Positions 7,946 through 54,417 of a stretch of DNA of 60,820 nucleotides are shown here, in pieces. How positions within the stretch are numbered: the stretch's first letter is position 1; every line of letters begins with the position of its first letter. Source of the DNA: a virus (taxonomy: Duplodnaviria; Caudoviricetes); the IMG/VR virus record IMGVR_UViG_3300016667_000092, positions 1-60,820 of that record. The stretch is one strand, 5' to 3'. Under the pieces are notes generated by a model. It worked only from the letters and a program-made list of their open reading frames with translations. It did no database searches and had not been told where the DNA came from. The position numbers and the translations under genes are program-made.

Positions 7946-8356
7946 TTATAATGCTTTAATCATTTCGTGAGTGTATGAGTCTGCTTTCATATAACCAAGA
8001 CTCTCATATGTCTCAATCAAACCTTGATGCTTAATCAAAGCATACGCAAACTTGTGTCCCGTATTTCTGCTTATGTTAGTCAAGGTCTCAATTAATAATT
8101 TTATAGCCTCGGTTCTTTGAGGCTTTTTTCTATATTGTTTGTTAGAGATAATCCAATCAACCCAAGCCACCTTAGAGTTGGTGGTATACACAAACCCTGC
8201 ACAGACCGGAATATCTTCATCCATAATCATAATACCACCTGTCCCATCGCCCGGAAGAAAGTCTCTTTGAGGAGACTCCCAACCCCAATCCTTCCACCAT
8301 CCTACAAGAATGTCATCATAGTCGCTTTGAAACAGTGGTCTTACAATAAGTTCCAT
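7946..8356 (-). CDS. GNAT-fold protein of tail/ejection module
   Basis: Start re-assigned to MELIVRPL just after a TATCTTTG promoter; VAWVDWIISNKQYR...YESLGY GNAT-like pattern. Confidence 0.55.
   Translation of the reverse strand: MELIVRPLFQSDYDDILVGWWKDWGWESPQRDFLPGDGTGGIMIMDEDIPVCAGFVYTTNSKVAWVDWIISNKQYRKKPQRTEAIKLLIETLTNISRNTGHKFAYALIKHQGLIETYESLGYMKADSYTHEMIKAL
8261..8276. repeat. 16-bp palindromic motif, 1-mismatch variant (intragenic)
   Basis: GTCTCTTTGAGGAGAC. Confidence 0.8.
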
Positions 8357-8362
8357 TGTAAA

Positions 8363-8370
8363 CAAAGATA
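8363..8370 (-). promoter_or_regulatory. Bacteroidota sigma-70 -7 element
   Basis: TATCTTTG on minus strand, 7 nt before ATG 8356. Confidence 0.6.
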
Positions 8371-8379
8371 CCAAAAAAA

Positions 8380-9216
8380 TCAAGGATAACTTTTCATCAC
8401 CTGAGATTCTACCGCAAATAATTCAATTTTATTATCCTCCGAGTTATCAAGGGTAAACACGCAGTAGTGACCCAATACCCCATGCGATTCAGCTACCGAG
8501 CTCTTTATGTAAAGGATATACGGGTCTTGGATGGCAGGAATAGTAGCTCCCGTGATCGTAGTGTCAACCGTAATCCTGTTCAGCCCTGTCCTATAATTGA
8601 CATTAATAGCAGTAACCTGCCCGAAAAGTAGAGGGGTAGTGTAAGGGGGAAGCGAGTAGTATGCCATGTCCCCTATGCTAATAATGTCCCCTATAGATAC
8701 AATGGTGGGGGTAATTTGGAAGTTTACCTCTACCGCTGCAGGAACAGTAGATACAATCGTGCTAGACCTACCAATCCCGTTCAGACTCCTAAGCGGATAC
8801 TCCTCAGGATTTGCAGGCACAGTACCATCGTTTCTAACAAATGCAAAGAATGATTGCTCCTTCTTCTCAAACCAAGAGGCATTGATAAAGCCTGAAGTCT
8901 GAATGTCAGTCTGAAGCACAGCTCCCCACTTAGCGTCACCCTCAAGGTTAATGGTCTTAAATAGCTTATTCTCAAGGGGTACGTCATTGATAACGCTAGT
9001 GATTCGGGTACTAGTGAAGGCCCCACCGGGATCTCCTAGCCTTACCCACCAATCAGCGTAGAAGGTATTCCTTAAAGCGTTCACGTTGTGCCTATAAAGA
9101 TTACCCCCCTTGAATGTATAGAAGTAGTTATTCATTCCAATCATCCAATCAGGGTAGTAAGAATAAAAGGAAGGCCACCCTTGTACCGCCTCGCTATATG
9201 ATAAAGTATACTCCAT
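8380..9216 (-). CDS. Tail structural protein resembling the C-terminal part of stabilization/nozzle proteins
   Basis: TLSYSE..GWPSFYSYYP, NKLFKTINLEG, FEKKE..FFA, IELFAVES motifs. Confidence 0.6.
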   Translation of the reverse strand: MEYTLSYSEAVQGWPSFYSYYPDWMIGMNNYFYTFKGGNLYRHNVNALRNTFYADWWVRLGDPGGAFTSTRITSVINDVPLENKLFKTINLEGDAKWGAVLQTDIQTSGFINASWFEKKEQSFFAFVRNDGTVPANPEEYPLRSLNGIGRSSTIVSTVPAAVEVNFQITPTIVSIGDIISIGDMAYYSLPPYTTPLLFGQVTAINVNYRTGLNRITVDTTITGATIPAIQDPYILYIKSSVAESHGVLGHYCVFTLDNSEDNKIELFAVESQVMKSYP

Positions 9217-9228
9217 GTTCGTTTTTTA

Positions 9229-10143: not shown

Positions 10144-10152
10144 ATAATTAAT

Positions 10153-16789: not shown

Positions 16790-17539
16790 CTACGAATTTA
16801 CATAATTCTCCAACATCTTGAGCGCATCTAAGCCCTCATCTGTTTTAAAGTAATTGGCTACAGTAGCATATGGATCTTCTCCATAAGGCACGGAAAGCAT
16901 CTTCTTCTTGTTGGAAGGGGTGCTAAACCAAATCTCCTTACGCCCGTTTCTGAAGGCTAATAGCTTCTGCTCAAAGAATACGTGGACAGAAGAGTGCAGC
17001 TTCAACATTGGGTCGTTCACCATATTGATAAAACCGATAGGGTCTTTCTTGGCATAGACCAACACATCTCTGCGTAGCTCGGCACTAGTAAATCTAGCAG
17101 GGTCCTTACCGAACAGCACACGGCATACGGTCTCCAATTGCTCTACAGAAAGCTGACGAGCCTCGATCAAGGCATCTACTTCTGCGTTCAGATTCTCTAC
17201 CACTTTTGCTGCATCTTTCTCTGTATCAACCTCTTCAAAGGATACACCATTCAAAGGATGGTAGTACAGGAACTGCTGAAGGACAGGGTTATTTTTGGGT
17301 ACACGAAGGAACCCGTTCTCGAAGATGATAGGCTCGACAATTGCATTGCCGTCCTGATCGTCCTCGAAAGGAGTCTTTTGATTGATGGCATAGCGAAGAG
17401 GTCTGTTCAGATTGTTCTCCTCATCATACCATAAAAGGGGATATCGTCTTGTATTTCGGGAAGGCAGCGTAAAAGAGAGAGGGGCTGCATCGTTCTTAAG
17501 TTTGTAGATTCTATCTACGGGAGTCAACTTAGCTTTCAT
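16790..17539 (-). CDS. Conserved hypothetical protein downstream of capsid gene
   Basis: 249-aa ORF in operon. Confidence 0.6.
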   Translation of the reverse strand: MKAKLTPVDRIYKLKNDAAPLSFTLPSRNTRRYPLLWYDEENNLNRPLRYAINQKTPFEDDQDGNAIVEPIIFENGFLRVPKNNPVLQQFLYYHPLNGVSFEEVDTEKDAAKVVENLNAEVDALIEARQLSVEQLETVCRVLFGKDPARFTSAELRRDVLVYAKKDPIGFINMVNDPMLKLHSSVHVFFEQKLLAFRNGRKEIWFSTPSNKKKMLSVPYGEDPYATVANYFKTDEGLDALKMLENYVNS

Positions 17540-17559: not shown

Positions 17560-17598
17560 AAAAGAAGGAGGGAGTCTCTTTGAAGAGACTCACCTCCT
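17560..17598 (-). terminator. Hairpin/terminator after capsid gene, containing the 16-bp palindrome (17574-17589)
   Basis: AGGAGGTGAGTCTCTTCAAAGAGACTCCCTCCT-TCTTTT on minus strand. Confidence 0.7.
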
Positions 17599-17615: not shown

Positions 17616-19049
17616 TTAAGCACCGTAGCGGAACAACACGAAGTTGTTAGCACCCAAGGTACATACGCAACGCTCAGAGAGGAAGTTAACCTCCATTGCA
17701 TCGAGGTCGCTAGTCTGTGCACCACCGGCAGAACCTGTGATCCAAGTTTTGTAGCGACGATCTTCAGCTTCAGTAGCGCGGTAGCGAACGTGTAAGAACG
17801 GACGCTTAGCGTTTTTGCCGAGGATTTGATCGTACACGGTAGTAGAACCTGCAGGAACCAACAATCCTGTTACAGTACCTGTAGCAGAAGAACCTGTAGG
17901 CAGACCACCACGCATTGTAGGATCGTTCAGATATTTCCAATCAGACTTGTAGAAGTCATAACCACGACGGAAACCGCTGAATCCAAGATTCAATGCCATC
18001 TCTGTGTCGTTGTCAAACAGACCGAAGGAAGCTGAATTAGCAGCACCTGTTCCGTTGAAACCGTTCAGAGTTGCAAGCATATCGTCGATATCGAAAGAGA
18101 ACTCACGATTAACGAAAATCACGTTCTCCTCGATAGAACCTTGCTTGTCAAGGCGAGAGATGATGCTGTCGAAGTCAGCAAGAGTTGTGGGGTTACCACC
18201 GCCCCATACGTTACCACGGTTGTTTACAACGTAGAACACACCCTCAGAACCTTTGTTACCAAAGTTAGGGTTGATGGCAGCGTTAGCAGCACCTGAACCT
18301 GACTCAGCAGGAACAGCCTCGATCATTGCAGTCTCAAGGTAGTCCTCAAAACGCAGACGAGTTTCGTGCTCACTCTTCAAATACCACAAGTATCCTGTAG
18401 CTCCGTTCTCGGTAGTGATTTCAACCCAACCGATCTGAGCCATATCAGAACCGCTTACAGCGTACTTGTCCTTGATGATGATTGGAGAGTTTTGGAAGAT
18501 ATCATCTTCAGCCTCCAAAGAACCTACCATTCCGATAGTTCCTTTCTTGAACTCAGAACCATAGATCCATACGGTACAAGTAGCAGTGATAGCAAAAGTC
18601 TGACCACCTGCCTCATAGTAAGCAACATCGAACTCGCCTGTAGTAGTGTTAACTGCAGTAACGATACCCTTGTTGCTAAGACCTGTAGCATTGTCAGAGA
18701 TGTTTACAGTCTGACCGGGACGGATTGCGATAGCAGTAACACCTGCATCACTAACCGTGATAGTAGCAGAGTCAGAACCTGCAGCAGCACTAGTAGCACA
18801 ATCAGTGTACTTGGTGTGCAAACGTCCTTGCTCAGCCCACTTGATAAGGTCAGAGTTAGAAGGCATCTCAGCTCCTACCATGCGGAGGAAAGATGCAACA
18901 GTACGATTACCATAACGCTCGAATTCCTTCTCGTAAGTATCAGGAAGATACTGATTCAAGAAGTCGAAGTTGGTAATATAGTTTGTAGATAATGGGACCT
19001 GCTCAGCACTTGGCTGCAGCTGATATCCCGGGGTTGGTAAAACAGCCAT
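17616..19049 (-). CDS. Major capsid protein
   Basis: 477 aa after portal and scaffold; QYLPD.YEKEFERYGNR, KWAEQGRLH, SER.VCTLGANNF motifs; strong codon bias. Confidence 0.85.
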   Translation of the reverse strand: MAVLPTPGYQLQPSAEQVPLSTNYITNFDFLNQYLPDTYEKEFERYGNRTVASFLRMVGAEMPSNSDLIKWAEQGRLHTKYTDCATSAAAGSDSATITVSDAGVTAIAIRPGQTVNISDNATGLSNKGIVTAVNTTTGEFDVAYYEAGGQTFAITATCTVWIYGSEFKKGTIGMVGSLEAEDDIFQNSPIIIKDKYAVSGSDMAQIGWVEITTENGATGYLWYLKSEHETRLRFEDYLETAMIEAVPAESGSGAANAAINPNFGNKGSEGVFYVVNNRGNVWGGGNPTTLADFDSIISRLDKQGSIEENVIFVNREFSFDIDDMLATLNGFNGTGAANSASFGLFDNDTEMALNLGFSGFRRGYDFYKSDWKYLNDPTMRGGLPTGSSATGTVTGLLVPAGSTTVYDQILGKNAKRPFLHVRYRATEAEDRRYKTWITGSAGGAQTSDLDAMEVNFLSERCVCTLGANNFVLFRYGA

Positions 19050-36116: not shown

Positions 36117-36158
36117 TGTACTATTTTTGCTCATTACAAAAGTAATAAATTAAATCAA

Positions 36159-39593: not shown

Positions 39594-40079
39594 GTTGTAT
39601 TGTTTTTACAAATATACGAAGTTTAGATATGCGTATTGTTGAGGCTATATATACATTTTGCGACACGGCTCCCGGACCGAAAGTCATTTTTTAAAAAAGG
39701 GGTTGGGGGGTCGATTTCCTTTTCCCCCTGCAAAGTTTTTGGCGTTTTCCCCACAGCCCCCTGAACCGGACCGACAAGGTGAATGAATCAGACCGACCCG
39801 TATGTCCTGCGTCCTGCATCCCCTGTCTGTGCACCCGTTTTTTGTCCCTTGCACCCGTTTTTCTCCCAAAGAGAGACTAAAGCACGAAGAGGGCTACCCC
39901 TCCCCCATAGCTTGACCCTTCAGATGCCTGATGGGGAGCGAATCCTCACAATCTACGCGTTTCTAAGTATAAATACGTGTTTTTAAAAAATAGTTGGGGT
40001 GTGTTGATTGTTTTATCAGAATTGTACATATATTGCACTCGAATTGATTAATTAACTAACAAAACAAACACTACACACT

Positions 40080-40778: not shown

Positions 40779-40793
40779 TCTCTTTGAAGAGAC
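40778..40793. repeat. 16-bp palindromic motif (perfect, intergenic)
   Basis: GTCTCTTTGAAGAGAC. Confidence 0.9.
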
Positions 40794-40796
40794 CAT

Positions 40797-40841
40797 GAGC
40801 AGGGACGGTCTTCAGGTAGGTTCGAGTCCTACCCCTGCTCC
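40797..40841 (+). ncRNA. tRNA-like minihelix (acceptor stem plus T-arm, no D or anticodon arm)
   Basis: GAGCAGGG...GTAGG-TTCGAGT-CCTAC-CCCTGCTC. Confidence 0.6.
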
Positions 40842-40878
40842 TTTCGTATAAATTTTGTATAAAACTAAACACTACACT

Positions 40879-41787
40879 ATGCAAAACGCAACTACAGGCA
40901 TCACCTACCTAAAAACAGGTGACAGGCACAGAGCAATCGTTAACGATTACCACAGGAAGCCGTACCCAAGAGAGATGCAAAAGACGATGTTCAATGTTGA
41001 CATCGCAGGACTCAAGATGGCTGACAGAAGGAATGTTCACCTTGTTGGGGCTGAGTTTGTCTCAAAGTTCACTATCGGTATGGAGGTTGAGAAAAACAGA
41101 CTTAGCAGGGGTGCAGTCAAGGAATATGAGCTGTTCTGTGGGTTTGAGAGAGACTCCTCCTGCGGTTATGAGGCAGTCACTAACATCCTGCCGTTACTAC
41201 CTGCGGGAATGTGGAGGAACAAAGTCTTTGATATGATGTTCAAAGCAAGCAGGATAATTGAAGACCAATACAGCCCGTCCAATGATCGCTGTGGTGGGCA
41301 CATATCAATCGGGGTTCGTGGGATGACCGGTGACACGATTATGGGAGTGATTCGACCCTTCTGTGGCATCCTGTATGCTATCTTTCATAAGAGACTGAAT
41401 ACACATTTCTGTGAGCACAATCCGCGGATGTTGCACAGAAACGATGCTGACTTCTACAACTATCCCACACACAGCAAGTACAATGTAGCACAGCCGAAGA
41501 CGGAATGTCTTGAGTTCAGACTCCCTTCACGTTTCCAATCTGTAAAGCAGATGATGAGAAGATACGAGTTGATGTACGAGATTACCAACTTTGCTTTCAA
41601 CACCCCAAGAGGTTCACATAAGATGCTCCTCAAGAAGGTGAAACCAATCCTGATGTCAATGTATGACGGCAATGAAGAGAAGGTGAACGAGCGTATCAAG
41701 ATGGCTGAGGACTTCAGGGAGTACATTCTGAACGGAACAATCACAGACCTAATCAGACCCTATGTACGAGACAGATATAGAAGATAA
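40879..41787 (+). CDS. Amidoligase (COOH-NH2 ligase, Amidoligase_2-like)
   Basis: IGMEVE, ERDSS..YEAVT, CGGHI, KY, LEFRLP motifs. Confidence 0.75.
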   Translation: MQNATTGITYLKTGDRHRAIVNDYHRKPYPREMQKTMFNVDIAGLKMADRRNVHLVGAEFVSKFTIGMEVEKNRLSRGAVKEYELFCGFERDSSCGYEAVTNILPLLPAGMWRNKVFDMMFKASRIIEDQYSPSNDRCGGHISIGVRGMTGDTIMGVIRPFCGILYAIFHKRLNTHFCEHNPRMLHRNDADFYNYPTHSKYNVAQPKTECLEFRLPSRFQSVKQMMRRYELMYEITNFAFNTPRGSHKMLLKKVKPILMSMYDGNEEKVNERIKMAEDFREYILNGTITDLIRPYVRDRYRR

Positions 41788-41809
41788 TTGGTAGTGTAGT
41801 GACTCCAAT

Positions 41810-41840
41810 GGAGGTGAGTCTCCTCAAAGAGACTCCCTCC
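41810..41840 (+). repeat. Hairpin containing the 16-bp palindrome variant (41818-41833)
   Basis: GGAGGTGAGTCTCCTCAAAGAGACTCCCTCC; near-identical to the minus-strand hairpin at 17563-17597. Confidence 0.8.
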
Positions 41841-41893
41841 TTCTGTAGAGTGGTGAGTGCCACTCCTGATGAGTCCAAAAGGACGAAACAGAA
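41841..41893 (+). ncRNA. Type III hammerhead ribozyme
   Basis: TTCTG-TA | GAGTGG-tgagtg-CCACTC | CTGATGA | GTCC-aaaa-GGAC | GAAA | CAGAA; all core nucleotides and three stems present; predicted GUA cleavage after 41847. Confidence 0.92.
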
Positions 41894-41912
41894 ACACTAA
41901 AAAACTATAGCT

Positions 41913-42128
41913 ATGAAAGTAATGTATTCAAAGTATGTCAACTCCTGTGCAGACTCAGGCAAGTTGATTATGAGAGGCGACAAAATCTACTATGACTTCA
42001 GGACTAAGAAAGCCTATCACCCTGACTCTGACTTCGTGAGAATCTACGAACAGGAAAGAGAACGTCAGGCGGTGATGTCCTACATTGATGAGCAAGAGAT
42101 GTTGATGTATGAAAGAGGCTATCATTAA
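41913..42128 (+). CDS. Small early protein
   Basis: MYSKY...CADSGK.I.RGD.I.YD; A-rich start. Confidence 0.65.
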   Translation: MKVMYSKYVNSCADSGKLIMRGDKIYYDFRTKKAYHPDSDFVRIYEQERERQAVMSYIDEQEMLMYERGYH

Positions 42129-42133
42129 GGCTG

Positions 42134-42180
42134 TATGGCTGAGGTGCACAGCCTGTCGAAGGCTGTTCACTCAGACCATA
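42134..42180 (+). ncRNA. Long imperfect hairpin (possible RNase III site)
   Basis: Nested pairing TATGG/CCATA, CTGA/TCAG, GTG/CAC, ACAGCCT/AGGCTGT. Confidence 0.45.
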
Positions 42181-42236
42181 GTCAAGACCAAGAAAAGCAA
42201 ACCTATCTGTCCACATTGTAATAAAATTAACCCACA

Positions 42237-42422
42237 ATGAAAGTCTATACTATCGCAATGGTTCGGGTCTACAAGACCTACCTTCAGTACGAAGCTAACA
42301 CACAGGAAGAGGCATTGGAAATGTTTAACAAGGATACGGACAAGTATGCAGTAGAACTTGAGCAATGCAACGCATATGAAATATCAGTAACAATAGTAGA
42401 CGAAGATGATTCACGAATTTAA
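42237..42422 (+). CDS. Small early protein
   Basis: YEANTQEEALE motif; operon context. Confidence 0.6.
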   Translation: MKVYTIAMVRVYKTYLQYEANTQEEALEMFNKDTDKYAVELEQCNAYEISVTIVDEDDSRI

Positions 42423-42618
42423 AACACCAATCGCGGTTAAGACTCCTCATGGGAATGGCGATGCAATCCTGTTCATTGACTATGGTCTCAATGTCAACAG
42501 CGTGTGGGTCGTTAGACTTCAAGGAGGACAGGTCAAACACTATTATTCAGATGACATCCTAATCTATGGCAACCCAATGGATGGTCGTGGATGGGATATT
42601 AAAAATGAAACACTATGA
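42406..42618 (+). CDS. Small early protein
   Basis: PIAVKTPHG.G.AI.FIDYG....VWVV. Confidence 0.65.
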   Translation: MIHEFKTPIAVKTPHGNGDAILFIDYGLNVNSVWVVRLQGGQVKHYYSDDILIYGNPMDGRGWDIKNETL

Positions 42619-42869
42619 AAGACGCAAAACTATTGGAGCAATTGGGATACCAAGACATGGAGTCCCTGTTCGAGGACATCTTAGGCAAGAGAAAGGTAGG
42701 CGAGTTGATTGAGGCGAGGCAACTATACTCAAAGCTTAGCGGTCAACAGAGAGTAGCTTTCTATCAGTACGTGGAGGAGAGTTACTTCTACTCTGTGATT
42801 GAGGATGAGCATGAGTTTCCTCTTGAATATCGCAACCTGCTGTTAGACTTCGTTGACATAACAGACTAA
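42615..42869 (+). CDS. Hypothetical protein
   Basis: ATGA-coupled ORF. Confidence 0.6.
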   Translation: MKDAKLLEQLGYQDMESLFEDILGKRKVGELIEARQLYSKLSGQQRVAFYQYVEESYFYSVIEDEHEFPLEYRNLLLDFVDITD

Positions 42870-42876
42870 AAATAAA

Positions 42877-42908
42877 TTTGGCAGTGTGCAATTTTTGTAT
42901 TATCTTTG
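42877..42908 (+). promoter_or_regulatory. Bacteroidota sigma-70 promoter
   Basis: TTTG-N20-TATCTTTG, consensus -33/-7. Confidence 0.8.
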
Positions 42909-42926
42909 TATAAATAACCTACAATT

Positions 42927-43115
42927 ATGGAAAACAATCTACCACTTAACGAGTCCGAACGCAATGAGATATTGCAGGACATCATTGACCGTATGCTCTA
43001 CCTGAAAGGTGACGAGCGTAATCGTTTCCTCTTTTACCTTGATGCACTAAGAGATGTATTCAAAGTCAACGTACAAATCGTGGACGGAGTACGTGTGTAC
43101 AAGGTATCCAAGTAA
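42927..43115 (+). CDS. Hypothetical protein
   Basis: ORF directly after promoter. Confidence 0.6.
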   Translation: MENNLPLNESERNEILQDIIDRMLYLKGDERNRFLFYLDALRDVFKVNVQIVDGVRVYKVSK

Positions 43116-43136
43116 TCAATCTTTAATCAGGACTCT

Positions 43137-43152
43137 GTCTCTTTGAAGAGAC
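43137..43152. repeat. 16-bp palindromic motif (perfect, intergenic)
   Basis: GTCTCTTTGAAGAGAC within a GGAC...GTCC extended hairpin. Confidence 0.9.
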
Positions 43153-43173
43153 TGTCCGCAAATCAAATCAACT

Positions 43174-44262
43174 ATGTGTGTAATCATTATCAAGCAGAAG
43201 AACAGAACCCTATCCCCTGAGATTGCCAAGACATCAGGACGGATGAATCCCCATGGACTCGGCATCATTTGGTTAGACACCTTTGAGGTGACCTACCACA
43301 AGTCAAGCGAATACAGGAAGCTACTCACAGACAGACCCTACATTGCCCACTTCAGATACGCGACCGTCGGTGCTATCGGCAGAAGCAACACACACCCATT
43401 CCAATGCGGGTCAAGCAAGCACGAGTACCTGATGATGAACGGAACAATCAAAGGTCTCGGCAATGCCAAAGACTGCGACAGCAAAGTACTTGCCTGTCAA
43501 TTGGGAGACAAACCAAGACACACGTGGAAGGCTGAACTGTCAAGTCATCCTTGTCGGTTCGTGACTATCAATGTCCGCAACAAAACCTATCAGATATACA
43601 ATCAAGAACTGTGGACTAAGCACGACGGCATATGGTTCAGTAAGGACGAGGTGATTGAGGATAACTTGGTAGCTGTGTATGGCACACTTCGCAAGGGACA
43701 TGGCAACTACAACTATTACCTGACCGACTCAAAGCATATCGGCAAGGGATATACCAAAGAAAAGTACCCACTAATCATTGATGGTCTACCCTATCTGATT
43801 GAGAAGAGTGGACAAGGTCACAACGTGGAGGTGGATGTGTTCAAAGTAAGCAACAGCGTGATGAGGCAGCTCGATGTATTGGAGGGTCATCCCAATTGGT
43901 ACAAAAGAAAGAGAGTACCCATCAAGGTAGGTGGTAAGGAGTTGATGTGTTGGATATACTTCAACAATACAGTAGACTACAAGGGCAAAGAGATGCACGT
44001 GAGATACGAGAAGCCTAAGCCTGTGACTGTACCCAAGAACAGACTGTCCTATGATATGCCAATCACGAAGCGACCTGCCCAACGTACATTCTACTTTGAG
44101 GATATGGTAGAGGATTTCAATAATGAGTTTGCGGTGGAGAGTGAGAAGCCTGTGTGCAGGTACTGCTATCAAGATCTTGAGCACGACTACTTCAACAACT
44201 ATCATTGCAACGGATGCGACTCTTGGTTCAGCGACCATGAGATTAACAGACGAGTATACTAA
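43174..44262 (+). CDS. Class II glutamine amidotransferase fused to gamma-glutamylcyclotransferase (AIG2-like) and C-terminal Zn ribbon
   Basis: N-terminal MC, NPHGLG, HFRYATVG, NTHPF, NGTI; VAVYGTLRKG, LDVLEGHP.WY; CxxC...CxxC. Confidence 0.85.
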   Translation: MCVIIIKQKNRTLSPEIAKTSGRMNPHGLGIIWLDTFEVTYHKSSEYRKLLTDRPYIAHFRYATVGAIGRSNTHPFQCGSSKHEYLMMNGTIKGLGNAKDCDSKVLACQLGDKPRHTWKAELSSHPCRFVTINVRNKTYQIYNQELWTKHDGIWFSKDEVIEDNLVAVYGTLRKGHGNYNYYLTDSKHIGKGYTKEKYPLIIDGLPYLIEKSGQGHNVEVDVFKVSNSVMRQLDVLEGHPNWYKRKRVPIKVGGKELMCWIYFNNTVDYKGKEMHVRYEKPKPVTVPKNRLSYDMPITKRPAQRTFYFEDMVEDFNNEFAVESEKPVCRYCYQDLEHDYFNNYHCNGCDSWFSDHEINRRVY

Positions 44263-44283
44263 CCATTACTATAAACAGGAGGG

Positions 44284-44299
44284 GTCTCTTCAAAGAGAC
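44284..44299. repeat. 16-bp palindromic motif (perfect, intergenic hairpin)
   Basis: GGAGGG-GTCTCTTCAAAGAGAC-TCCCTCC. Confidence 0.9.
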
Positions 44300-44321
44300 T
44301 CCCTCCACAAATTAAATCAAC

Positions 44322-44471
44322 ATGACAATCCAAAATCTAATCGAACAAATCCAAGACAACGCAGAGTTTCTTATGACTACAGATGGTGATGACATTGACT
44401 GCATCAGCCTAGAAAACTTAGAAGGAATCCTGTCAACCTATTTAAATCAAACTGTAAAATTAGCACGATGA
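44322..44471 (+). CDS. Small acidic protein (49 aa)
   Basis: MTIQNLIEQIQDNAEFLMTTDGDDIDCISLENL...; ATGA overlap with next gene. Confidence 0.6.
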   Translation: MTIQNLIEQIQDNAEFLMTTDGDDIDCISLENLEGILSTYLNQTVKLAR

Positions 44472-44938
44472 CAATTAAGAAAGGAACACACGCGCCATGT
44501 AGACTACCAAGACTACTTATTGGAACAAGTTCACTTGTAATGAGCGTCAGCTTTGATAAGTCTTGCATATACGACATTGGCTCTGAGCAAGGAGATGTCA
44601 ATAAATTATTTGGCATAGGGTACTTCCCGCATCATAGATTCAAAAGCGTAAGAGTAGGGTGGAATTATAATCTACAAACTAAGCTTATAGACTTATTCTC
44701 GTATTGGTATGCAGAAAACAATCTTACATTTAATTATCTTGAAAGTACTGAGCTTTATAAGAATAACATTATTTCAATTGATATAGAGAAAGATAAGCAC
44801 ACCATCCATACTCCTTCTGTTATCCAAGAAATATATCTGCCAAGTAATGGCAATGGATATTTACTTAGAGAGTATTTTGGAGGACAGACTAAAGCTCCGC
44901 ATGACATAAGTATTAATTCACATTTAGTAATAATTTAA
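44468..44938 (+). CDS. Hypothetical beta-rich protein (AT-rich)
   Basis: DVNKLFGIG, SVRVGW, YFGG..KAPHD. Confidence 0.6.
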   Translation: MTIKKGTHAPCRLPRLLIGTSSLVMSVSFDKSCIYDIGSEQGDVNKLFGIGYFPHHRFKSVRVGWNYNLQTKLIDLFSYWYAENNLTFNYLESTELYKNNIISIDIEKDKHTIHTPSVIQEIYLPSNGNGYLLREYFGGQTKAPHDISINSHLVII

Positions 44939-44940
44939 TT

Positions 44941-45342
44941 ATGACAATCAAAGTAAAGCAAGAGATTACAATCACAAGGAAAATCCTTGAGGATATATTT
45001 GTGACAGCTATCGAAGGGGGTAGTAACTATTGGTACTTCTTTAATGATGCAGCCTGCGATAAGGTGCGAGATGCAATTCCTGAACACGTAGACCCATGCT
45101 TTTCAACGGCAGTACTTCGCGCAGTATTAGACAAGAGAGTAGCGATAGATGTGTCTGATGTAGAGACAGATGAAGTCATTGGTTCGTTAGATGTCAACCT
45201 GTTTAAGCGTAGACTTCAAGATCTATTTAATGATGAGTCATGCAGACAAGCGTTACTCAACATGATAAACGAAGAGGGTGACGCATCAGATGCAGACATC
45301 GTGTTTCAGTACCTGATTATGGGAGAGGTAGTATACGGATAA
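44941..45342 (+). CDS. Conserved hypothetical protein
   Basis: TAIEGGSNYW ... DASDAD..FQY.IMGEVVYG. Confidence 0.7.
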   Translation: MTIKVKQEITITRKILEDIFVTAIEGGSNYWYFFNDAACDKVRDAIPEHVDPCFSTAVLRAVLDKRVAIDVSDVETDEVIGSLDVNLFKRRLQDLFNDESCRQALLNMINEEGDASDADIVFQYLIMGEVVYG

Positions 45343-45356: not shown

Positions 45357-45533
45357 ATGAACATCACCTGTAAAGTATGCAAAAAGATAAAGCCGGAGAA
45401 GGACTTCAGACATAAACACTTCGCACCTACCATGTGCATCCAATGCCATAAGGAAAGACGAAGCGAAAAGTACCGTAAGAATCCGAGACAGAACTCTACT
45501 AAATGGATGGATATTATAATTGGTAAATCATAA
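45357..45533 (+). CDS. Small Zn-finger protein (58 aa)
   Basis: CKVCKKIKPEKDF...CIQC. Confidence 0.6.
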   Translation: MNITCKVCKKIKPEKDFRHKHFAPTMCIQCHKERRSEKYRKNPRQNSTKWMDIIIGKS

Positions 45534-45543
45534 ATCAACTACA

Positions 45544-45807
45544 ATGAAAAGACAGACATCAATGGAATGGTTAGAGCAGGAACTACAGAACGTATACCAA
45601 AAAGAATGGAAGTTACCAATAGGATACACACTACACCTGTTGGGTCAGGCTAAGAAGATGAACGAAGAGGAAATCAAGGAGGCATACAATGATGGACACG
45701 AGGATGCCGACATAAAGAGTGGAGTATACGATGGCTTTGATATCAGACTCTCAACTCTTGCGAGTGAATACTATGAAAAGAAATTTAAAAACGAACAGCA
45801 TGGTTAA
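45544..45807 (+). CDS. Hypothetical protein (paralog of 52405..52623)
   Basis: QTSMEWL...QAKKM.EE.I.EAY...EYY. Confidence 0.65.
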   Translation: MKRQTSMEWLEQELQNVYQKEWKLPIGYTLHLLGQAKKMNEEEIKEAYNDGHEDADIKSGVYDGFDIRLSTLASEYYEKKFKNEQHG

Positions 45808-46350: not shown

Positions 46351-46707
46351 ATGTTCAACATCCAAGAAGCAATCAGCACCGAGCTGTTCAAACCAAAGCC
46401 CGACACACTTCATCTTAGAGTCATCGAGCAATTGAAAGAGTCAGGTATCTTGACGCTTAAACAATTCTCAAGCACAGGTCGATTCGTTGGAGCAGATACA
46501 TTTACGAAAGAGAACCCTGATGTGTCACTACATAGTAGTTGCACAGACGTAGTGTATTACGTAGGAGGATTCTATGTGCAAGCACTTAAGGATAACACAT
46601 TCTTTGCTGACTTATGCGGGCACAAGATTGTAAACAAATCACTTGATGAGATTGAAGTAATCATTTGGGATATATTCTTAGACAACTTTTTTAATAACCA
46701 AAAATAA
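46351..46707 (+). CDS. Hypothetical protein
   Basis: 118-aa ORF. Confidence 0.6.
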   Translation: MFNIQEAISTELFKPKPDTLHLRVIEQLKESGILTLKQFSSTGRFVGADTFTKENPDVSLHSSCTDVVYYVGGFYVQALKDNTFFADLCGHKIVNKSLDEIEVIIWDIFLDNFFNNQK

Positions 46708-46774
46708 ATATCAAGATTGTTGAGGAGATATGCACACAATAAATTATCTTCGTCGACTCTCTCAAATTAAATCT

Positions 46775-47062
46775 ATGAAGCACGAAGTATTCAATAGTTA
46801 CGTAGATAAAATTACACAGCTATTCTCAATAGACAAGCAGACACTCTTCAGCAAGACCAAGAAGAGAGAGGTGGTAGATGCAAGACATATCCTTTACTAT
46901 GTATGTTCAGTAAGACCAATGCGTATCAGCTACATTCAGCGATACCTTGAGGCGAATGGGTACTCTGTGCAACACACATCAATCCTTCATGGGATCAGAA
47001 CAATCAAGAAAAAAATTACTGAAGACCCTGACTATGTAAGTATCATTAGAAAATTAAATTAA
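46775..47062 (+). CDS. DnaA C-terminal (domain IV)-like HTH protein
   Basis: SKTKKREVVDARHILYY...HTSILHGIRTI. Confidence 0.7.
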   Translation: MKHEVFNSYVDKITQLFSIDKQTLFSKTKKREVVDARHILYYVCSVRPMRISYIQRYLEANGYSVQHTSILHGIRTIKKKITEDPDYVSIIRKLN

Positions 47063-48450: not shown

Positions 48451-48452
48451 AT

Positions 48453-48934: not shown

Positions 48935-48953
48935 TCCCTGCCTGTGTGTCTAA

Positions 48954-48985: not shown

Positions 48986-48990
48986 AAACC

Positions 48991-49150: not shown

Positions 49151-49154
49151 AACA

Positions 49155-51890: not shown

Positions 51891-51897
51891 GAATAAT

Positions 51898-52116
51898 ATG
51901 GACTTAATTAAACATGATAAAGATTGGTTCACAGAAAGAGTAGGACAAAGAGTATTCAGAACCAAGGGGGATTGTTATTGTGACGCTTGCGAAAAAGTTT
52001 ATTTGGAAGGATTAATAATTCAAGATAAACAACACGCTCAATATTTATATGATTGTCAGAATGAATTAGGCTTATACTATTACACAAAAAACAAACAACA
52101 TGGGGACAAGAGTTAA
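51898..52116 (+). CDS. Hypothetical protein with Cys cluster
   Basis: 72 aa, CYCDAC. Confidence 0.6.
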   Translation: MDLIKHDKDWFTERVGQRVFRTKGDCYCDACEKVYLEGLIIQDKQHAQYLYDCQNELGLYYYTKNKQHGDKS

Positions 52117-52393
52117 AGTAACATACGTAGCATTAAATGAATATGGGAAACCTATTATATCAGCAAGTACATTTGATGATCTTCGTAAAGGATTAGATGA
52201 CTATTATGCTGTAGATAGAACAGACGCTAAATGTCTTGGATTCGTTCCTTATGAAACCAAATATCCTGACGACTATGAAGGACATTATACCTATAGTTGG
52301 ACAAGTATTATTCATAATGAGAAAACTACAGAGCTAGATGTTATTAAGGTGTATTGCATTGATTATTTCCCTCACACAATATATGAAGTATAA
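52100..52393 (+). CDS. Hypothetical protein
   Basis: 97-aa ORF in AT-rich cassette. Confidence 0.6.
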   Translation: MGTRVKVTYVALNEYGKPIISASTFDDLRKGLDDYYAVDRTDAKCLGFVPYETKYPDDYEGHYTYSWTSIIHNEKTTELDVIKVYCIDYFPHTIYEV

Positions 52394-52404
52394 AAACAAA
52401 TAAT

Positions 52405-52623
52405 ATGAAACAACAAACAACAGTACAATGGTTAGAAGAACAACTAAATAAATGGTCAGATGGAAGATTTTATTTACCACCACACTTATTTGAACAAGCC
52501 AAACAAATGGAGAAGGAGCAGATAATAAACGCTTGGAGAGAAGGAGATAATGATAGTATGTATAACCCAAAAGAATTAGACAAACAAGCAGAACAATACT
52601 ACAATGAAACATATGGAAAATAA
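52405..52623 (+). CDS. Hypothetical protein (QT.V.WL / QAK.MEKEQI family)
   Basis: Paralog of 45544..45807. Confidence 0.65.
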   Translation: MKQQTTVQWLEEQLNKWSDGRFYLPPHLFEQAKQMEKEQIINAWREGDNDSMYNPKELDKQAEQYYNETYGK

Positions 52624-52948
52624 AAAACTACTACACGTAAGTATGATCAATTCATACAATGTAATCACAGGCAAGGCGAACATTAACGACATTGCTATCG
52701 CTAGTCTAGGATTCTTTATCCATCAACCCGATGAGCCCGTGTCCGCAAGCATAATGGATTACATAATAAGTTACTTTGAAGAGAAGGAAATGTTTGAGTA
52801 CTGTGCTGATGTAAAGAAAATAAAAGACTCTATCTACAATCAGGACGGCACATTGAAAGAAAGCTTATGCGCCTGCGAGCTACCGATGATAACCAAATAC
52901 TCCTGCGTAACTAGATGCGATAACTGCAACAACCCTATAAGATTGTAA
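52613..52948 (+). CDS. Hypothetical protein with C-terminal Cys motifs
   Basis: YFEEKEMFEYCA; CxC..CxxC. Confidence 0.6.
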   Translation: MENKKLLHVSMINSYNVITGKANINDIAIASLGFFIHQPDEPVSASIMDYIISYFEEKEMFEYCADVKKIKDSIYNQDGTLKESLCACELPMITKYSCVTRCDNCNNPIRL

Positions 52949-54417
52949 TGGATATCATCAAGAGATATACGGGATACAGTAATGAGATGATGCTTCGGCA
53001 ATGCGAGATTCTAAAGAAGGTGATGACATCTACCAAAGAGGTGAAGACAGGAAGAGGAAAGGATGTAAAGATAGAGCACCGACTGAAGTACAATAGCGAA
53101 CCCGAAGTATTGCAGAGGATTCTAAACAGCTACGAACACTACCTAAAACTATACGAGCAGGACATGGAAAGAAAGAACCGAATAACATTTAGAGATTATC
53201 AGTCACAGATTATAGACGAAGCCCTGAAGATTATAACTCAGCATAGATTTGTGTATCTTGCAATGGAGGTTAGGACAGGCAAGACGCTCACTAGCCTCGG
53301 CATAGCAGAAGAGGTTCATGTAAGCAAGGTCTTATTCGTAACCAAGAAGAAAGCAATAGGGTCAATATCTGCGGATCTCGAACTGTTCATGCCGTCATTT
53401 GACATGACGATTATAAACTATGAGAGTCTGCATACCGTTGCCGACAGCGAGAAGTGGGACCTGATTATACTAGACGAAGCCCACAGTATGGGCGCATTCC
53501 CAAAGCCAAGCCAAAGAGCCATACAGGTTAAGGAGATTATCCAAAATCATAGACCATACGTAATCCTCCTGTCAGGTACGCCAACCCCTGAGTCCTACTC
53601 ACAGATGTACCATCAGGTATATGGTATACCAACCAACCCCTTCAGTAAGTTCGCTAACTTCTATAGGTTCTGCGATGAGTACGTAAAGGTGAAGCAGAAG
53701 AAGGTGAACGGGATGTTCATCAACGACTACACCCACGGTAAGCAGGAGATACTTGACGTGATGAAACCATACACTATATCCTACACGCAGAAGGAGGCAG
53801 GGTTCATCACTAAGACCACGGAAAATATCTTAGAGGTAGAGCTGAAGGAGTCAACCTATAGGTTAATTAGTAGGCTTAAGAAGGACTTAGTAGTGGAGGG
53901 GAGGGAGCAGCTGATACTAGCCGACACCCCTGTCAAGCTAATGTCCAAGCTCCATCAGCTATACTCAGGGACCATCAAGTTTGAAAGCGGGGATTCTATG
54001 GTTCTCGATACTACTAAGGCTGAGTTCATCCGTTCTCGGTTTGCGAACCGTAAAATAGGAATCTTCTACAAATTCAAGGAGGAACTGAACGCTCTTAAGG
54101 AAGTATTCAAGGATTCCTTGACAACTGAACTGAGTCTCTTTGAAGAGACCGACAAGTCTATAGCCCTGCAGATAGTGTCCGGGAGGGAGGGTATAACCCT
54201 ACAGAAGGCTGAGGTGTTGGTCTATTATAACATTGACTTCAGTGCCACTAGCTATTGGCAGAGCAAGGACAGGATGACCACCAAGCTCAGACCGACCAAT
54301 GATATCTATTGGGTCTTCGCTAAGGACGGGATTGAGCACGACATTTACAAGACCGTGATTAAAAAAAAGGACTATACTGTTTCGCACTTTAAACAAAATT
54401 TATTAACATTGTACTAA
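52948..54417 (+). CDS. SF2 (SNF2-like) helicase
   Basis: RDYQ, VRTGKT, ILDEAH, LSGTP, SGREGITL, QSKDR. Confidence 0.85.
   Translation: MDIIKRYTGYSNEMMLRQCEILKKVMTSTKEVKTGRGKDVKIEHRLKYNSEPEVLQRILNSYEHYLKLYEQDMERKNRITFRDYQSQIIDEALKIITQHRFVYLAMEVRTGKTLTSLGIAEEVHVSKVLFVTKKKAIGSISADLELFMPSFDMTIINYESLHTVADSEKWDLIILDEAHSMGAFPKPSQRAIQVKEIIQNHRPYVILLSGTPTPESYSQMYHQVYGIPTNPFSKFANFYRFCDEYVKVKQKKVNGMFINDYTHGKQEILDVMKPYTISYTQKEAGFITKTTENILEVELKESTYRLISRLKKDLVVEGREQLILADTPVKLMSKLHQLYSGTIKFESGDSMVLDTTKAEFIRSRFANRKIGIFYKFKEELNALKEVFKDSLTTELSLFEETDKSIALQIVSGREGITLQKAEVLVYYNIDFSATSYWQSKDRMTTKLRPTNDIYWVFAKDGIEHDIYKTVIKKKDYTVSHFKQNLLTLY
54134..54149. repeat. 16-bp palindromic motif (perfect, intragenic)
   Basis: GTCTCTTTGAAGAGAC. 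Confidence 0.9.

Follow-up and report, generated by a model that had tools for sequence, protein, structure and literature searches.

A 16-bp palindrome recurs throughout the genome of a tailed phage, both inside genes and between them, which raises the question of what maintains it and what reads it. We analyzed the whole stretch of 60,820 nucleotides (hereafter the window), which is a complete IMG/VR virus record (IMGVR_UViG_3300016667_000092). The perfect palindrome, GTCTCTTTGAAGAGAC, has six exact matches in the window, at 17574, 24712, 40778, 43137 and 54134 on the plus strand and at 44284 on the minus strand (mean in 100 dinucleotide-preserving shuffles = 0.00), and a search with GTCTCTTNNAAGAGAC allowing up to two mismatches returned ten sites, each with zero or one mismatch (0.54 expected; ten reached in 0 of 100 shuffles). 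The original prediction, made from the letters of this genome, had listed six perfect and four one-mismatch copies with practically none expected by chance, and our searches recovered the same set at exactly the same coordinates. They also recovered its two variant classes (8261 and 41818 share one inner mismatch, 35100 and 40160 another), the clustering of five copies within 40160-44299, and the five copies inside open reading frames: 8261 in a GNAT gene (7946-8383, minus strand), 24712 in terL (22687-24984), 35100 in a DUF5872 gene (35005-35340, minus strand), 40160 in the first early gene (40080-40778, plus strand) and 54134 in a helicase gene (52948-54417). We read the 35100/40160 class as hybrids, with one GTGTC arm and one GAGAC arm. 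A degenerate copy with arms TTCTC and GAGAC around a 7-nt spacer lies upstream of the first early gene (39861-39877), where it adjoins short direct repeats.

By comparison with related genomes, the window 16-mer differs from GTGTCTT-YR-AAGACAC by a symmetric pair of changes (G3>C, C14>G), and the motif is common to other genomes rather than private to the window. The family consists of ~60-kb freshwater podophages, distant kin of Flavobacterium Elemovirus. Whole records of near-complete relatives carried either 7-17 copies (15 of 24) or 0-1 (9 of 24), and a reversed-pattern control gave 0-1 copies. In 80 loci of relatives we found 158 matches to GT[GC]TC-N6-GA[GC]AC, 109 of which read GTGTCTT(TG/CA)AAGACAC. 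The places recur as well: among five complete GTGTC-type relatives, a copy is present at terL codon ~86, at helicase codon ~396 and 3' of the GATase/GGACT gene in all five, and 3' of the capsid gene and at groEL codon 219 in four. Conservation extends over the 16 nt only, with variable flanks. A perfect copy also sits just after iteron-like repeats in four relatives (G012, G002, G004 and G023), matching the place of the degenerate copy at 39861; the predicted early -7 box follows this conserved copy at a distance of ~150-220 bp, which probably places the copy outside the early transcript. The window retains a relic of the older spelling, GTGTTTTCAAAGACAC with one mismatch, inside its giant gene (2714-2729). 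The copy in the GNAT gene, GTCTCTTTGAGGAGAC with one inner mismatch (8261-8276; peptide E-S-P-Q-R-D), has no motif at that place in any of ten aligned relatives and, as far as the alignment goes, is new in the window's lineage.

The original prediction held that copies inside genes are maintained despite coding constraint, and in the relatives these sites are indeed kept, with their synonymous positions frozen. The perfect helicase copy (54134-54149; codons 396-401, S-L-F-E-E-T) corresponds to S-V-F-E-D-T in relatives' loci, and 41 of 72 gap-free aligned loci carry the motif there (49 of 80 loci by eye). Within those 41 loci the codons are AGT (38 of 38), GTC (41 of 41) and GAC (41 of 41), while neighboring Leu, Thr and Gly residues use four to six codons each; L032 and L035 encode the same amino acids without the motif, using GTA/TTC. 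The perfect terL copy (24712-24727; codons 86-91, E-S-L-Q-R-D) lies where five of five GTGTC-type relatives read C-L-Q-R-H and where G051, a GTCTC-type genome, reads S-L-Q-R-D as the window does. The spelling switch altered both proteins, from C-L-Q-R-H to S-L-Q-R-D in terL and from S-V-F-E-D-T to S-L-F-E-E-T in the helicase, and in these alignments the sites changed spelling jointly, with amino-acid changes as the cost. The hybrids fit the same pattern. At 35100-35115 (GTGTC and GAGAC arms on the plus strand), where G004 has the perfect older spelling, the window has changed GTG to GTC synonymously and kept ACA; at 40160-40175 (codons 27-32, R-S-L-Q-R-H), close relatives of the first early protein keep (R/K)SLQRH. 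At both sites the switch was limited to the arm that could change synonymously or cheaply.

What is held constant is the sequence of the arms. Across 1.48 Mb of DNA from the family, TTYRAA was flanked by perfect 5-bp arms reading GTGTC 119 times, GTCTC six times and anything else eight times in total (control center, 3). Only these two of 1024 possible arm sequences rose above background, and no other base-pair-preserving variant did, which suggests that something reads the sequence itself and not just a hairpin. The center is always a pyrimidine-purine step, with TG (56) and CA (53) in similar numbers on one strand in the 80 loci of relatives, and its orientation flips between orthologous sites; changes at inner positions 6/11 and 7/10 are not compensated. 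The pyrimidine-purine center, the inner variation, the hybrids, the scarcity of long stems and the copy beside the iteron-like repeats favor, on sequence grounds, double-stranded DNA read by a symmetric dimer. The putative site for a dimeric, sequence-specific factor first proposed for this palindrome fits the arm constraint, the conserved intragenic sites, the joint switch and the center; for the parS-like or packaging role suggested alongside it, the comparisons speak neither for nor against.

Because the site is palindromic, its transcript is predicted to fold into a stem-loop (6-bp stem, 4-nt loop), and several copies in the window are embedded in larger RNA structures. The perfect copy at 17574-17589 caps a 33-nt hairpin (17566-17598, minus strand; dG -22.5 kcal/mol, z -3.0) between the capsid-like gene (17616-19049; PHROG virion structural protein) and the gene at 16790-17539, and with TTCTTTT following on the sense strand this hairpin looks like a terminator. 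The copy at 41818-41833, with one inner mismatch, caps a 31-nt hairpin (41810-41840, plus strand; -19.8 kcal/mol, z -2.7) downstream of the gene at 40879-41787. At the end of this hairpin begins a type III hammerhead ribozyme (41840-41894, plus strand; predicted cut after GUA, 41847), which matches RF00008 over the full model length with 43.7 bits (gathering 48.5; E 3e-6) and in which the core CUGAUGA...GAAAC can be read. The perfect copy at 40778-40793 shares 1 nt with the stop codon that ends the first early gene and is directly followed by a tRNA-like minihelix (40797-40841, plus strand), an 8-bp acceptor-like stem stacked on a T-arm (-19.0 kcal/mol over 40795-40845), at which ARAGORN called no tRNA. 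The GATase/GGACT gene (43174-44262) is flanked by two perfect copies: 43137-43152, 21 nt upstream of its ATG, has a 4-bp outer stem (43130-43157, plus strand; -11.4 kcal/mol), and 44284-44299, after the gene, caps a 30-nt hairpin (44277-44306, plus strand; -19.9 kcal/mol). At the copy in relatives that is orthologous to 43137, the outer stem covaries (GAGG/CCTC, GGG/CCC, AGG/CCT and GAG/CTC, with GGAC/GTCC at 43130-43157 in the window). In relatives, five of six hammerhead matches (L010, L013 and L023) abut a copy, and tRNA genes of L013 and L028 start 4 and 9 nt downstream of a copy. Extended hairpins with z ≤ -2 are capped by 17 of 54 intergenic copies, about a third, against 4 of 35 copies inside genes and none of the 14 in MW202828. 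This split is crude: it places the terL copies of the window, G004, G023, G011 and G012 among the intergenic ones and counts some spurious open reading frames as intragenic. Most copies have neither a T-run nor a long stem.

The explanation we favor, at a little short of an even chance, is that the 16-mer is the putative DNA site of a dimeric protein and doubles as RNA punctuation. It would be the version found in this phage of a recognition site with dyad symmetry that the large podophage family shares. In the working unit, a 6-bp A/T-rich spacer centered on a pyrimidine-purine step would separate two 5-bp arms, GTCTC and GAGAC in the window and GTGTC and GACAC in most relatives. Selection would hold about ten copies at fixed places between and inside genes, as the comparisons above indirectly show, because a sequence-specific reader recognizes them. 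The most likely reader would be a homodimer of the 40080-40778 product on the double-stranded site, used as a genome-wide operator, with sites in and around its own gene and one by the iteron-like region upstream of the early operon. At gene boundaries the core caps long hairpins that would end a message, as after the capsid gene, or that stand directly before the hammerhead or tRNA-like minihelix in the window and before tRNA genes in relatives. Given these caps and RNA-cutting neighbors, whose structure and position are observed, the element probably also punctuates and stabilizes mRNAs.

A possible though less probable explanation is that the element works mainly in RNA, as a conserved stem-loop that sets mRNA ends, stability or translation through a phage or host protein specific for the hairpin, either an RNA-binding protein or an endoribonuclease, much like the histone mRNA stem-loop or a Cas6-type hairpin, with the DNA palindrome serving only as template. 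Long capped stems with covarying outer pairs and the three kinds of RNA-processing neighbor are explained more simply this way, and the lack of orientation is no obstacle since a palindromic stem is the same both ways. Moreover, successive early genes of MW202828 and G030 have the lineage's palindrome between them, past the stop codon of one and 15-25 nt ahead of the ATG of the next, and a feature-based comparison offered, as a lead only, the T4 RegA translational-repressor family, with 133 features in common and a score of 0.91. However, two thirds of the intergenic and almost all of the intragenic copies are bare 16-mers of about -6 kcal/mol, weak stems within translated open reading frames, and the uncompensated inner positions speak against a conserved stem. 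The hybrids disrupt the middle of the stem and yet moved towards the new spelling, the strict pyrimidine-purine center makes sense as a symmetric feature of DNA but would have no evident role in a loop, and one conserved copy lies by the iteron-like repeats upstream of the predicted early promoter. Among 30 window proteins scanned, none was a candidate RNA-binding protein or nuclease for the hairpin.

If the 16-mer is a DNA site read by a dimer, the wHTH protein originally put forward (36105-36626) is not supported as its binder. It is present in all 24 near-complete relatives, including seven with zero motif copies, and so does not track the motif; moreover, genomes with identical motifs differ in the putative recognition helix of this protein. 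The first early protein (40080-40778, plus strand; 232 aa) is fast-evolving and has a helical N-terminal domain, which includes an HTH-like segment (aa ~75-97), joined through an acidic linker to a small C-terminal domain of beta-beta-beta-alpha topology. Its profile matches 15 of 15 near-complete genomes with at least seven copies. It also matches G018, G030 and G024, in which the first early gene is flanked by a different palindrome particular to each genome, and has no match in G025 or G026, neither of which has a repeated palindrome. In this comparison the first early protein tracks the palindrome far better than the wHTH protein does, although shared ancestry confounds the co-occurrence, and with 1 of 13 inner branches well supported the terL tree is too unresolved for counting independent events. 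Its C-terminal domain is predicted to dimerize (score 0.43 vs 0.05 for the best control, a mark reached by 20 of 30 proteins solved as one-chain pairs and 1 of 23 solved as single chains), with runs agreeing in at least 86% of contacts and a partner pLDDT of at least 61; the model supports putative binding without showing it. The putative recognition helix, KVFGWQKS..., is present in 19 of 22 GTGTC-type genomes and different in six of six GTCTC-type genomes, but the link is not clean, with five different helices among those six and with exceptions: G047 keeps Q, the GTGTC-type G008 has G, and MW202828 has S with GTGTC arms. The protein matched no Pfam or PHROG family and had no Foldseek match at E ≤ 0.001. 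Weak structural matches include the CHD1 C-terminal DNA-binding domain (Z 6.1, rmsd 3.8, 93 aligned), the KorB operator-binding domain (Z 5.0, rmsd 3.4-3.6, 85-96 aligned) and Spo0J (Z 4.5, rmsd 4.0, 89 aligned), and these DNA-binding matches tie with unrelated helical proteins.

It is unlikely that the reader is host-encoded, the phage exploiting or decoying a DNA- or RNA-binding factor such as a nucleoid or partition protein, or the palindrome mimicking a CRISPR repeat hairpin in the manner of Racrs, with the GTGTC and GTCTC spellings reflecting different hosts. The GTCTC spelling does occur in several genomes other than the window's nearest relatives (terL identity is 70-76% to G051-G054 vs 74-80% to GTGTC-type genomes), the terL tree does not group the GTCTC types, and their first early proteins are very unlike each other, all of which would suit a host factor. 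RNA anti-CRISPRs mimicking repeat hairpins do exist in phages (PMC10651486). The palindrome, however, conserves only 16 nt between variable flanks, whereas Racrs copy whole repeats, and ten or more copies, some at conserved places in essential genes, are unlike solitary repeat units. Palindrome type also goes with the presence and divergence of a phage gene. A scan of the genomes of 185,579 species returned at least 120 stretches, as single matches in unrelated taxa with no enriched genome among the matches listed.

We consider it quite improbable that there is no specific reader, the copies being common terminators or structural hairpins, or else linkers at which gene modules recombine, homogenized by gene conversion or recombination between copies or co-infecting relatives. 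Copy 17574 with its T-run and copies in relatives (L058 2872; L059 3099 and 7172) do resemble terminators, a Sak annealing protein and a PDDEXK nuclease are among the phage's gene products, and early genes are gained and lost between close relatives. Against this, more than pairing is conserved, the intragenic copies are held synonymously with amino acids altered alongside spelling, the features of a terminator are absent from most copies, and none of four clean gene-sized joints in close relatives falls at the palindrome. Least probable is an N4-like arrangement in which the palindromes are hairpin promoters and the giant virion protein (>3,400 aa, its gene wrapping the record ends) conceals an RNA polymerase carried in the virion: the early-gene palindromes of MW202828 and G030 are suitably placed, but copies occur in both orientations, in opposite-strand late genes and inside terL, groEL and the helicase gene, several precede a T-run or ribozyme rather than a gene start, and Pfam, PHROGs and a sequence search of solved structures found GNAT and DUF7178 domains only and no polymerase domain in that protein.

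The use of the site as an operator by a dimer of the first early protein, as we propose it, would resemble that of KorB on its operators or of a repressor on stoperators. The closest precedent for the element is the 17-bp repeats of Cluster O mycobacteriophages.

The palindrome occurs six times in the 60,820-base window as exact GTCTCTTTGAAGAGAC, where 0.00 occurrences are expected. With the centre left free and up to two mismatches allowed, the search returned ten sites, each with 0 or 1 mismatch, against 0.54 expected and with none of 100 shuffles reaching ten. The ten copies of the original prediction were thereby all recovered, at 8261, 17574, 24712, 35100, 40160, 40778, 41818, 43137, 44284 and 54134, and no further copy appeared; its placement of five copies in coding sequence also held, with five inside open reading frames (ORFs) and five between genes. 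A k-mer census found no comparable repeat in the window besides a fourfold internal repeat in a 1019-aa gene (30942-34001) that has no Pfam or PHROG family. This 18-nt unit (AAAATCAAGTTTTAATCC, one strand) lies four times at 32169-33090, spaced by 192-393 nt, and is probably the marker of an internally repeated protein domain.

The window corresponds to an entire IMG/VR virus record. Minus-strand genes fill about 5-39 kb, with terL, portal, a capsid-like gene and groEL among them, and the plus-strand genes of 40-56 kb are early and replication genes. A giant gene spans the two ends of the record (1-5639 and 56046-60820); GNAT and DUF7178 are the sole Pfam matches of its product. The two open frames of this gene are out of phase across the junction, so the record may overlap itself or miss a few bases there.

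We then compared the motif across the phage family. The only close relative in GenBank, MW202828.1, is about 75% identical at the DNA level across portal and terL. It has zero copies of the window's motif and carries a perfect palindrome of its own, GTGTCGTTAACGACAC, 14 times, all in the early region and mostly directly past a stop codon, 16-25 nt ahead of the next ATG. From more than 596 helicase relatives in IMG/VR, 80 loci were kept for motif counts, and in these GT[GC]TC-N6-GA[GC]AC occurs 158 times, 109 of them as GTGTCTT(TG/CA)AAGACAC. Whole-record counts in 24 near-complete genomes were bimodal, with 7-17 copies in 15 genomes and 0-1 in the other nine; the reversed pattern, as a control, gave 0-1 copies. 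Based on these family-wide counts, the window's spelling is the family consensus with one symmetric change (G3>C plus C14>G). Copies 35100 and 40160 are hybrids that pair a new arm with an old one. The GTCTC spelling is also found in four other IMG/VR relatives (G051, 10 copies; G052, 6; G053, 11; G054, 5), and G047 is mixed, with six GTCTC copies and two of the older spelling. In the terL tree, which bears on the number of independent spelling switches, only one of 13 inner branches was well supported.

Three relatives without the GTSTC motif have different palindromes in the early region: AGTTCGGTSACCGAACT eight times in G030, GTGGTTTYRAAACCAC four times in G018, and CGTATTTNAAATACG four to five times in G024. 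In the G030 record (L125, 43273-52157), each AGTTCGGTSACCGAACT copy stands 15-25 nt ahead of an early gene start. No repeated palindrome was found in the early regions of G025 and G026, nor in the Elemovirus MT497017.1. Flavobacterium Elemoviruses (MT497017.1) are the closest cultured phages by terL, at 44.6% identity, and share with the window a genome plan that includes a giant structural protein and GroEL/ES. Because of this kinship, and because Shine-Dalgarno sequences are missing before the start codons, the host probably belongs to the Bacteroidota. With each prokaryote species represented by one genome, a scan returned at least 120 stretches with the window's spelling; among the matches listed, almost all were single and from unrelated taxa, and no enrichment was seen. 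In the searchable literature, none of the five spellings turned up as a text string. L195, an IMG/VR contig of 182,057 bases from an apparently unrelated jumbo-sized virus, also holds the window's 16-mer in three exact copies within about 530 bases.

The sites keep their places in relatives. Five complete GTGTC-type relatives share with the window the copies at terL codon ~86 (5/5) and helicase codon ~396 (5/5), and four of the five have the copy that follows the capsid gene; in these relatives copies flank the first early and GATase/GGACT genes as well. The window's lineage gained the GNAT-gene site at 8261, and a site at groEL codon 219, kept in four of the five relatives, was lost in the window. 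At the helicase site, 41 motif-bearing loci used AGT in 38 of 38 cases and GTC and GAC in 41 of 41 each, while the neighboring Thr, Leu and Gly positions used four to six different codons each, and motif-less genomes with the same helicase amino acids used other codons. Intragenic copies are thus conserved in relatives at synonymous positions, which answers a check proposed with the original prediction. Different genes read the motif in all three frames (V-F-E-D-T, C-L-Q-R-H, V-S-S-K-T), indicating that no peptide is under selection. The change of spelling was followed by the proteins: C-L-Q-R-H became S-L-Q-R-D in terL, S-V-F-E-D-T became S-L-F-E-E-T in the helicase, and in the DUF5872 gene the sole arm to change was the one able to change synonymously. 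The palindrome is real and selected.

If base pairing alone mattered, any compensated arm variant would be expected, so fixed arms speak for a reader beyond the hairpin. A survey of 1.48 Mb of family DNA for perfect 5-bp arms on either side of TTYRAA found GTGTC 119 times, GTCTC six times and all others together eight times; a control centre gave three in the same search. The arms GTSTC/GASAC are invariant and the inner six nucleotides variable, with many copies within and between genes as in a dispersed repeat. Inner positions 6, 7, 10 and 11 vary freely and without compensation. The central two bases are almost always pyrimidine-purine, divided between TG (56) and CA (53) on one strand; there is no orientation bias relative to transcription, and the centre flips at orthologous sites, again the behavior of a dispersed repeat. 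Judged from sequence, fixed arms, a tolerant A/T-rich spacer, a deformable centre, lack of orientation and independent half-sites would be the usual signature of a dimer on double-stranded DNA. We conclude that the palindrome is very probably the target of a sequence-specific factor. More tentatively, and with slightly less than even confidence, we propose that this factor is a dimer of the first early protein (232 aa, encoded at 40080-40778, +) acting on DNA, with use of the RNA hairpin as a second layer.

The strongest rival places the element's function primarily in RNA. Longer hairpins hold four of the five intergenic window copies, at 17566-17598 (-22.5 kcal/mol), 41810-41840 (-19.8 kcal/mol), 44277-44306 (-19.9 kcal/mol) and 43130-43157 (-11.4 kcal/mol), the last in the 5' leader of the GATase/GGACT gene and with an outer stem that covaries in relatives. 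In seven genomes, stem-extending flanks (z<=-2) accompanied 17 of 54 copies classed as intergenic and 4 of 35 classed as intragenic, a split made by a crude ORF rule that misfiled several copies; in MW202828 none of 14 copies had such flanks. A 302-aa gene without a family match (40879-41787) and the GATase-like/GGACT fusion (43174-44262), whose product has an N-terminal Met-Cys, are each bracketed by palindrome hairpins.

Putative RNA-cutting elements adjoin several copies. The end of the hairpin at 41810 coincides exactly with the start of a putative type III hammerhead ribozyme (41840-41894, +), a full-length match to RF00008 at 43.7 bits against a gathering score of 48.5 (E 3e-6) with the conserved core CUGAUGA...GAAA, three stems and an NUH triplet. 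Five of six hammerhead matches in three relatives (L010 109-163 and 1164-1218; L013 40-95 and 2381-2436; L023 28-83 and 1838-1892) begin within a few bases of a copy. Putative type III hammerheads of the early operon usually number one or two per genome in the family, all just under Rfam's gathering threshold (35-45 bits against 48.5), and most begin at the end of a palindrome-capped hairpin. In two relatives a tRNA gene lies 4 or 9 nt past a copy (L013 6361-6453; L028 3975-4062), and copy 40778 is followed by a tRNA-like minihelix of acceptor stem and T-arm (40797-40841, +), at which ARAGORN called no tRNA and whose position is comparable to that of the two tRNA genes. With three kinds of RNA-cutting device directly 3' of the element, the upstream message would end in a hairpin.

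Either the element's main job is in RNA, or a palindromic operator was recruited as a hairpin seed. We consider the former somewhat unlikely; if the element acted in RNA alone, it would be a rare sequence-defined mRNA 3'-end or processing signal in a phage. Arguing for a DNA role is a conserved copy directly after iteron-like direct repeats in G012, G002, G004 and G023, whose distance upstream is 230-280 nt to the first early gene and 150-220 nt to a predicted -7 promoter box. The window has only a degenerate copy at the same place (39861-39877). Short direct-repeat arrays are found in the divergent late/early region of the window (39660-39880) and of four relatives, differ in each genome, and may mark a replication origin.

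Other classes of element were compared with the sites. The original prediction counted a motif that only forms terminator stems among its refuting outcomes, and at most a minority of copies qualify: 17574, whose GC-rich stem runs into TTCTTTT on the sense strand, is the sole window copy with a T-run, although T-runs follow several relatives' copies too. Five copies are within ORFs, and 40778, 43137 and 44284 have no T-run. Intrinsic terminators, unlike these sites, need no fixed stem sequence, do not sit in ORFs at conserved places and show no concerted spelling switch. Asymmetric, singly oriented stoperators do not match sites that are dyad-symmetric and found in both orientations. A role at cassette junctions is argued against by a comparison of the window with contigs of close relatives from other metagenomes, in which none of four gene-sized joints is at a palindrome. 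The contigs join cleanly across window 42227-42405, 42602-42860, 44467-44941 and 45538-45797, indicating that the small early ORFs 42237-42422, 42615-42869 and 44468-44938 and part of 45520-45807 are present in some strains and absent from others. Whereas REP or MITE elements add extragenic sequence, copies inside genes replace codons without an indel relative to orthologues. CRISPR-repeat mimics (Racr) are solitary, resemble a full-length host repeat and stand behind a promoter; the copies here number ten, five of them in ORFs, and share 16-20 nt. N4-style hairpin promoters, which go with an encoded virion RNA polymerase and stand upstream of early genes alone, are unlikely, since sequence methods gave no polymerase signal in the giant protein, and copies also lie in late genes and inside ORFs.

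Several observations point to the first early protein as the candidate reader. Its profile matched all 15 near-complete genomes with at least seven copies, and also G018 (7e-15), G030 (4e-12) and G024 (1e-3); in all three, the first early gene has the lineage's own palindrome beside or inside it. The profile had no match in G025 or G026, both of which lack a repeated palindrome; in G013, G020, G029 and G032 the first early gene is absent and no repeat was found in 21 kb around the helicase gene. In the predicted structure, a disordered acidic linker separates a helical N-domain (pLDDT 90) from a small beta-beta-beta-alpha C-domain. For the C-domain, symmetric pairing of two copies is predicted (score 0.43 versus 0.05 for the best control). 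Of 30 proteins whose solved structure is a pair of one chain, 20 attained this mark, as did 1 of 23 with a single-chain structure; runs shared at least 86% of contacts, and the partner had a pLDDT of at least 61. The modeling supports pairing of the C-domain.

The N-domain had weak fold matches, all level with those to unrelated helical proteins; the nucleic-acid-binding ones were the CHD1 C-terminal DNA-binding domain (Z 6.1, rmsd 3.8, 93 aligned), the KorB operator-binding domain (Z 5.0, rmsd 3.4-3.6, 85-96 aligned), Spo0J (Z 4.5, rmsd 4.0, 89 aligned) and a sigma-factor HTH (Z 5.0, rmsd 3.0, 57 aligned). With Foldseek, no PDB structure matched at E<=0.001, and a profile search of PDB sequences yielded nothing meaningful. 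A Pfam scan of 66 family members yielded marginal matches only (Cdh1_DBD_1 in 5 of 66, best E 0.006), and the Atlas hits DUF3102 and Translat_reg (scores 0.90-0.91) serve as leads only. Among 50,697 GenBank phage records, none but MW202828 held a homologue.

An HTH-like segment of the protein, KVFGWQKS..., is present in 19 of 22 GTGTC-type genomes and different in all six GTCTC-type genomes. At helix position 86, Q or K stands in 21 of 22 genomes of the GTGTC type versus one of six of the GTCTC type, and the window's subclade (6 of 66 family members) has N86, L90 and F91. Because G008, G047 and MW202828 are exceptions and the counts ignore kinship, a single-residue specificity code at position 86 is suggestive only.

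Other binder candidates fared less well. The original prediction had favored the wHTH protein (36105-36626), which is encoded in 24 of 24 near-complete relatives (42 of 50 records) with or without the motif, and whose putative recognition helix varies among genomes with an identical motif. As a core gene product with a helix that does not track the motif, it was set aside as best binder, though it may well bind DNA as such. Two DnaA-domain-IV-like proteins of the window (46730-47062 and 54851-55399) were set aside as well; the first is present in 30 of 30 full-length loci whatever the motif, and its helix varies without pattern. In 30 of 31 full-length loci, the locus with exactly one copy being left out, the GATase/GGACT gene accompanied 16 of 17 motif-bearing and 0 of 13 motif-less loci, and a 118-aa gene (46351-46707) 15 of 17 and 1 of 13. 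Since both genes are missing in some motif-bearing genomes and lack a nucleic-acid-binding signal, we rejected them as binders and read their pattern as a clade marker.

In a further-reaching reading, a fast-evolving dimeric first early protein would read, at about ten conserved positions in the genome, a palindrome specific to its lineage. The transcribed palindrome would form a hairpin setting mRNA ends jointly with hammerhead ribozymes, tRNAs or tRNA-like minihelices, and single base-pair spelling switches (G:C to C:G) would sweep all sites, including those in essential genes. As a whole, a lytic family with such a co-evolving identity system of reader and palindrome, whose hairpin also defines mRNA ends with hammerheads, tRNAs and minihelices, and which spelling switches split into regulatory incompatibility groups, strikes us as fairly unlikely. 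It would provide a viral counterpart, from the bacterial world, of stem-loop-dependent 3'-end formation, and its incompatibility groups would resemble immunity groups but exist without lysogeny. The family comprises hundreds of environmental genomes with the same site map and changing spelling; the selective footprint is clear, in frozen synonymous sites and amino-acid changes that follow the motif, and a concrete candidate reader is at hand. If the main proposal of a first early protein dimer acting on DNA is true, it would reveal a layer of genome-wide regulation in freshwater phages that are abundant and have Bacteroidota-type hosts, and a natural coupling of operator, protective hairpin and self-cleaving ribozyme. 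It also bears on how regulatory specificity diversifies in phages.

Histone mRNAs end in a conserved stem-loop bound by SLBP, and RiboJ is an engineered insulator that joins a ribozyme to a hairpin. The 16-nt element resembles both, in that a 6-bp stem with a 4-nt loop lies beside a cleavage site and the upstream RNA would end in the hairpin. Those systems are eukaryotic or synthetic, whereas here cleavage would be by a hammerhead or by RNase P/Z on a tRNA-like element, and most copies are not beside a cleavage device.

By analogy, the best mechanistic models are the KorB operators of RK2 and the Cluster A stoperators. RK2 has 12 OB operators, in three distance classes. KorB is a ParB-family CTPase that acts as a dimer and has an HTH, a flexible linker and, for dimerisation, a separate C-terminal domain (PMC11790492). 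As in this family, a short palindrome is present there about a dozen times on a mobile genome of about 60 kb, near and far from promoters and in genes; KorB acts on it as a global regulator. The present case differs in being a lytic phage whose sites double as RNA hairpins, and no ParB-family or CTPase domain was found by Pfam or PHROG among the 30 window proteins scanned, a subset of the ORFs.

Stoperators are 13 bp long and oriented relative to transcription. In Cluster A they are asymmetric sites read by a monomeric repressor (PMC9283540), with tens of them across a phage genome, many in short intergenic gaps, and a site sequence that co-evolves with its reader between lineages, as may be the case here (PMC9283540, PMC6550527). 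They serve lysogenic immunity, whereas the present sites are dyad-symmetric and orientation-free and no lysogeny genes were seen among the proteins scanned.

Dispersed short repeats in lytic phages were known before, for example in the Cluster O mycobacteriophages, and have so far gone unexplained. Corndog and its relatives, actinobacterial siphophages, carry a 17-bp dyad repeat with 7-bp arms and a 3-bp centre, 34 times in Corndog and more than 30 times per Cluster O genome, for which the authors predicted a dimeric DNA-binding protein and left the role unexplained (PMC4351075; also PMC6439249 for the repeat). The likeness extends to invariant inverted arms and a variable centre, genome-wide copies that are denser at one end with about one third in coding regions, an orientation without meaning, no tie to promoters or involvement in indels, and phages that are not obviously temperate. 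The G030 palindrome shares the arms GTTCGG/CCGAAC and a 3-nt centre with the Cluster O repeat (PMC4351075), and tblastn of the G030 first early protein gave no Cluster O match. Spelling switches, synonymous-site tests, a candidate reader and ribozyme or tRNA-like links, all four of them features of the present family, are not among what the Cluster O paper describes (PMC4351075). The Cluster O repeat is the closest described case, and what is new is the combination of a family-wide site map, synonymous-site selection, a concerted spelling switch, a candidate reader and coupling to ribozymes and tRNA-like elements.
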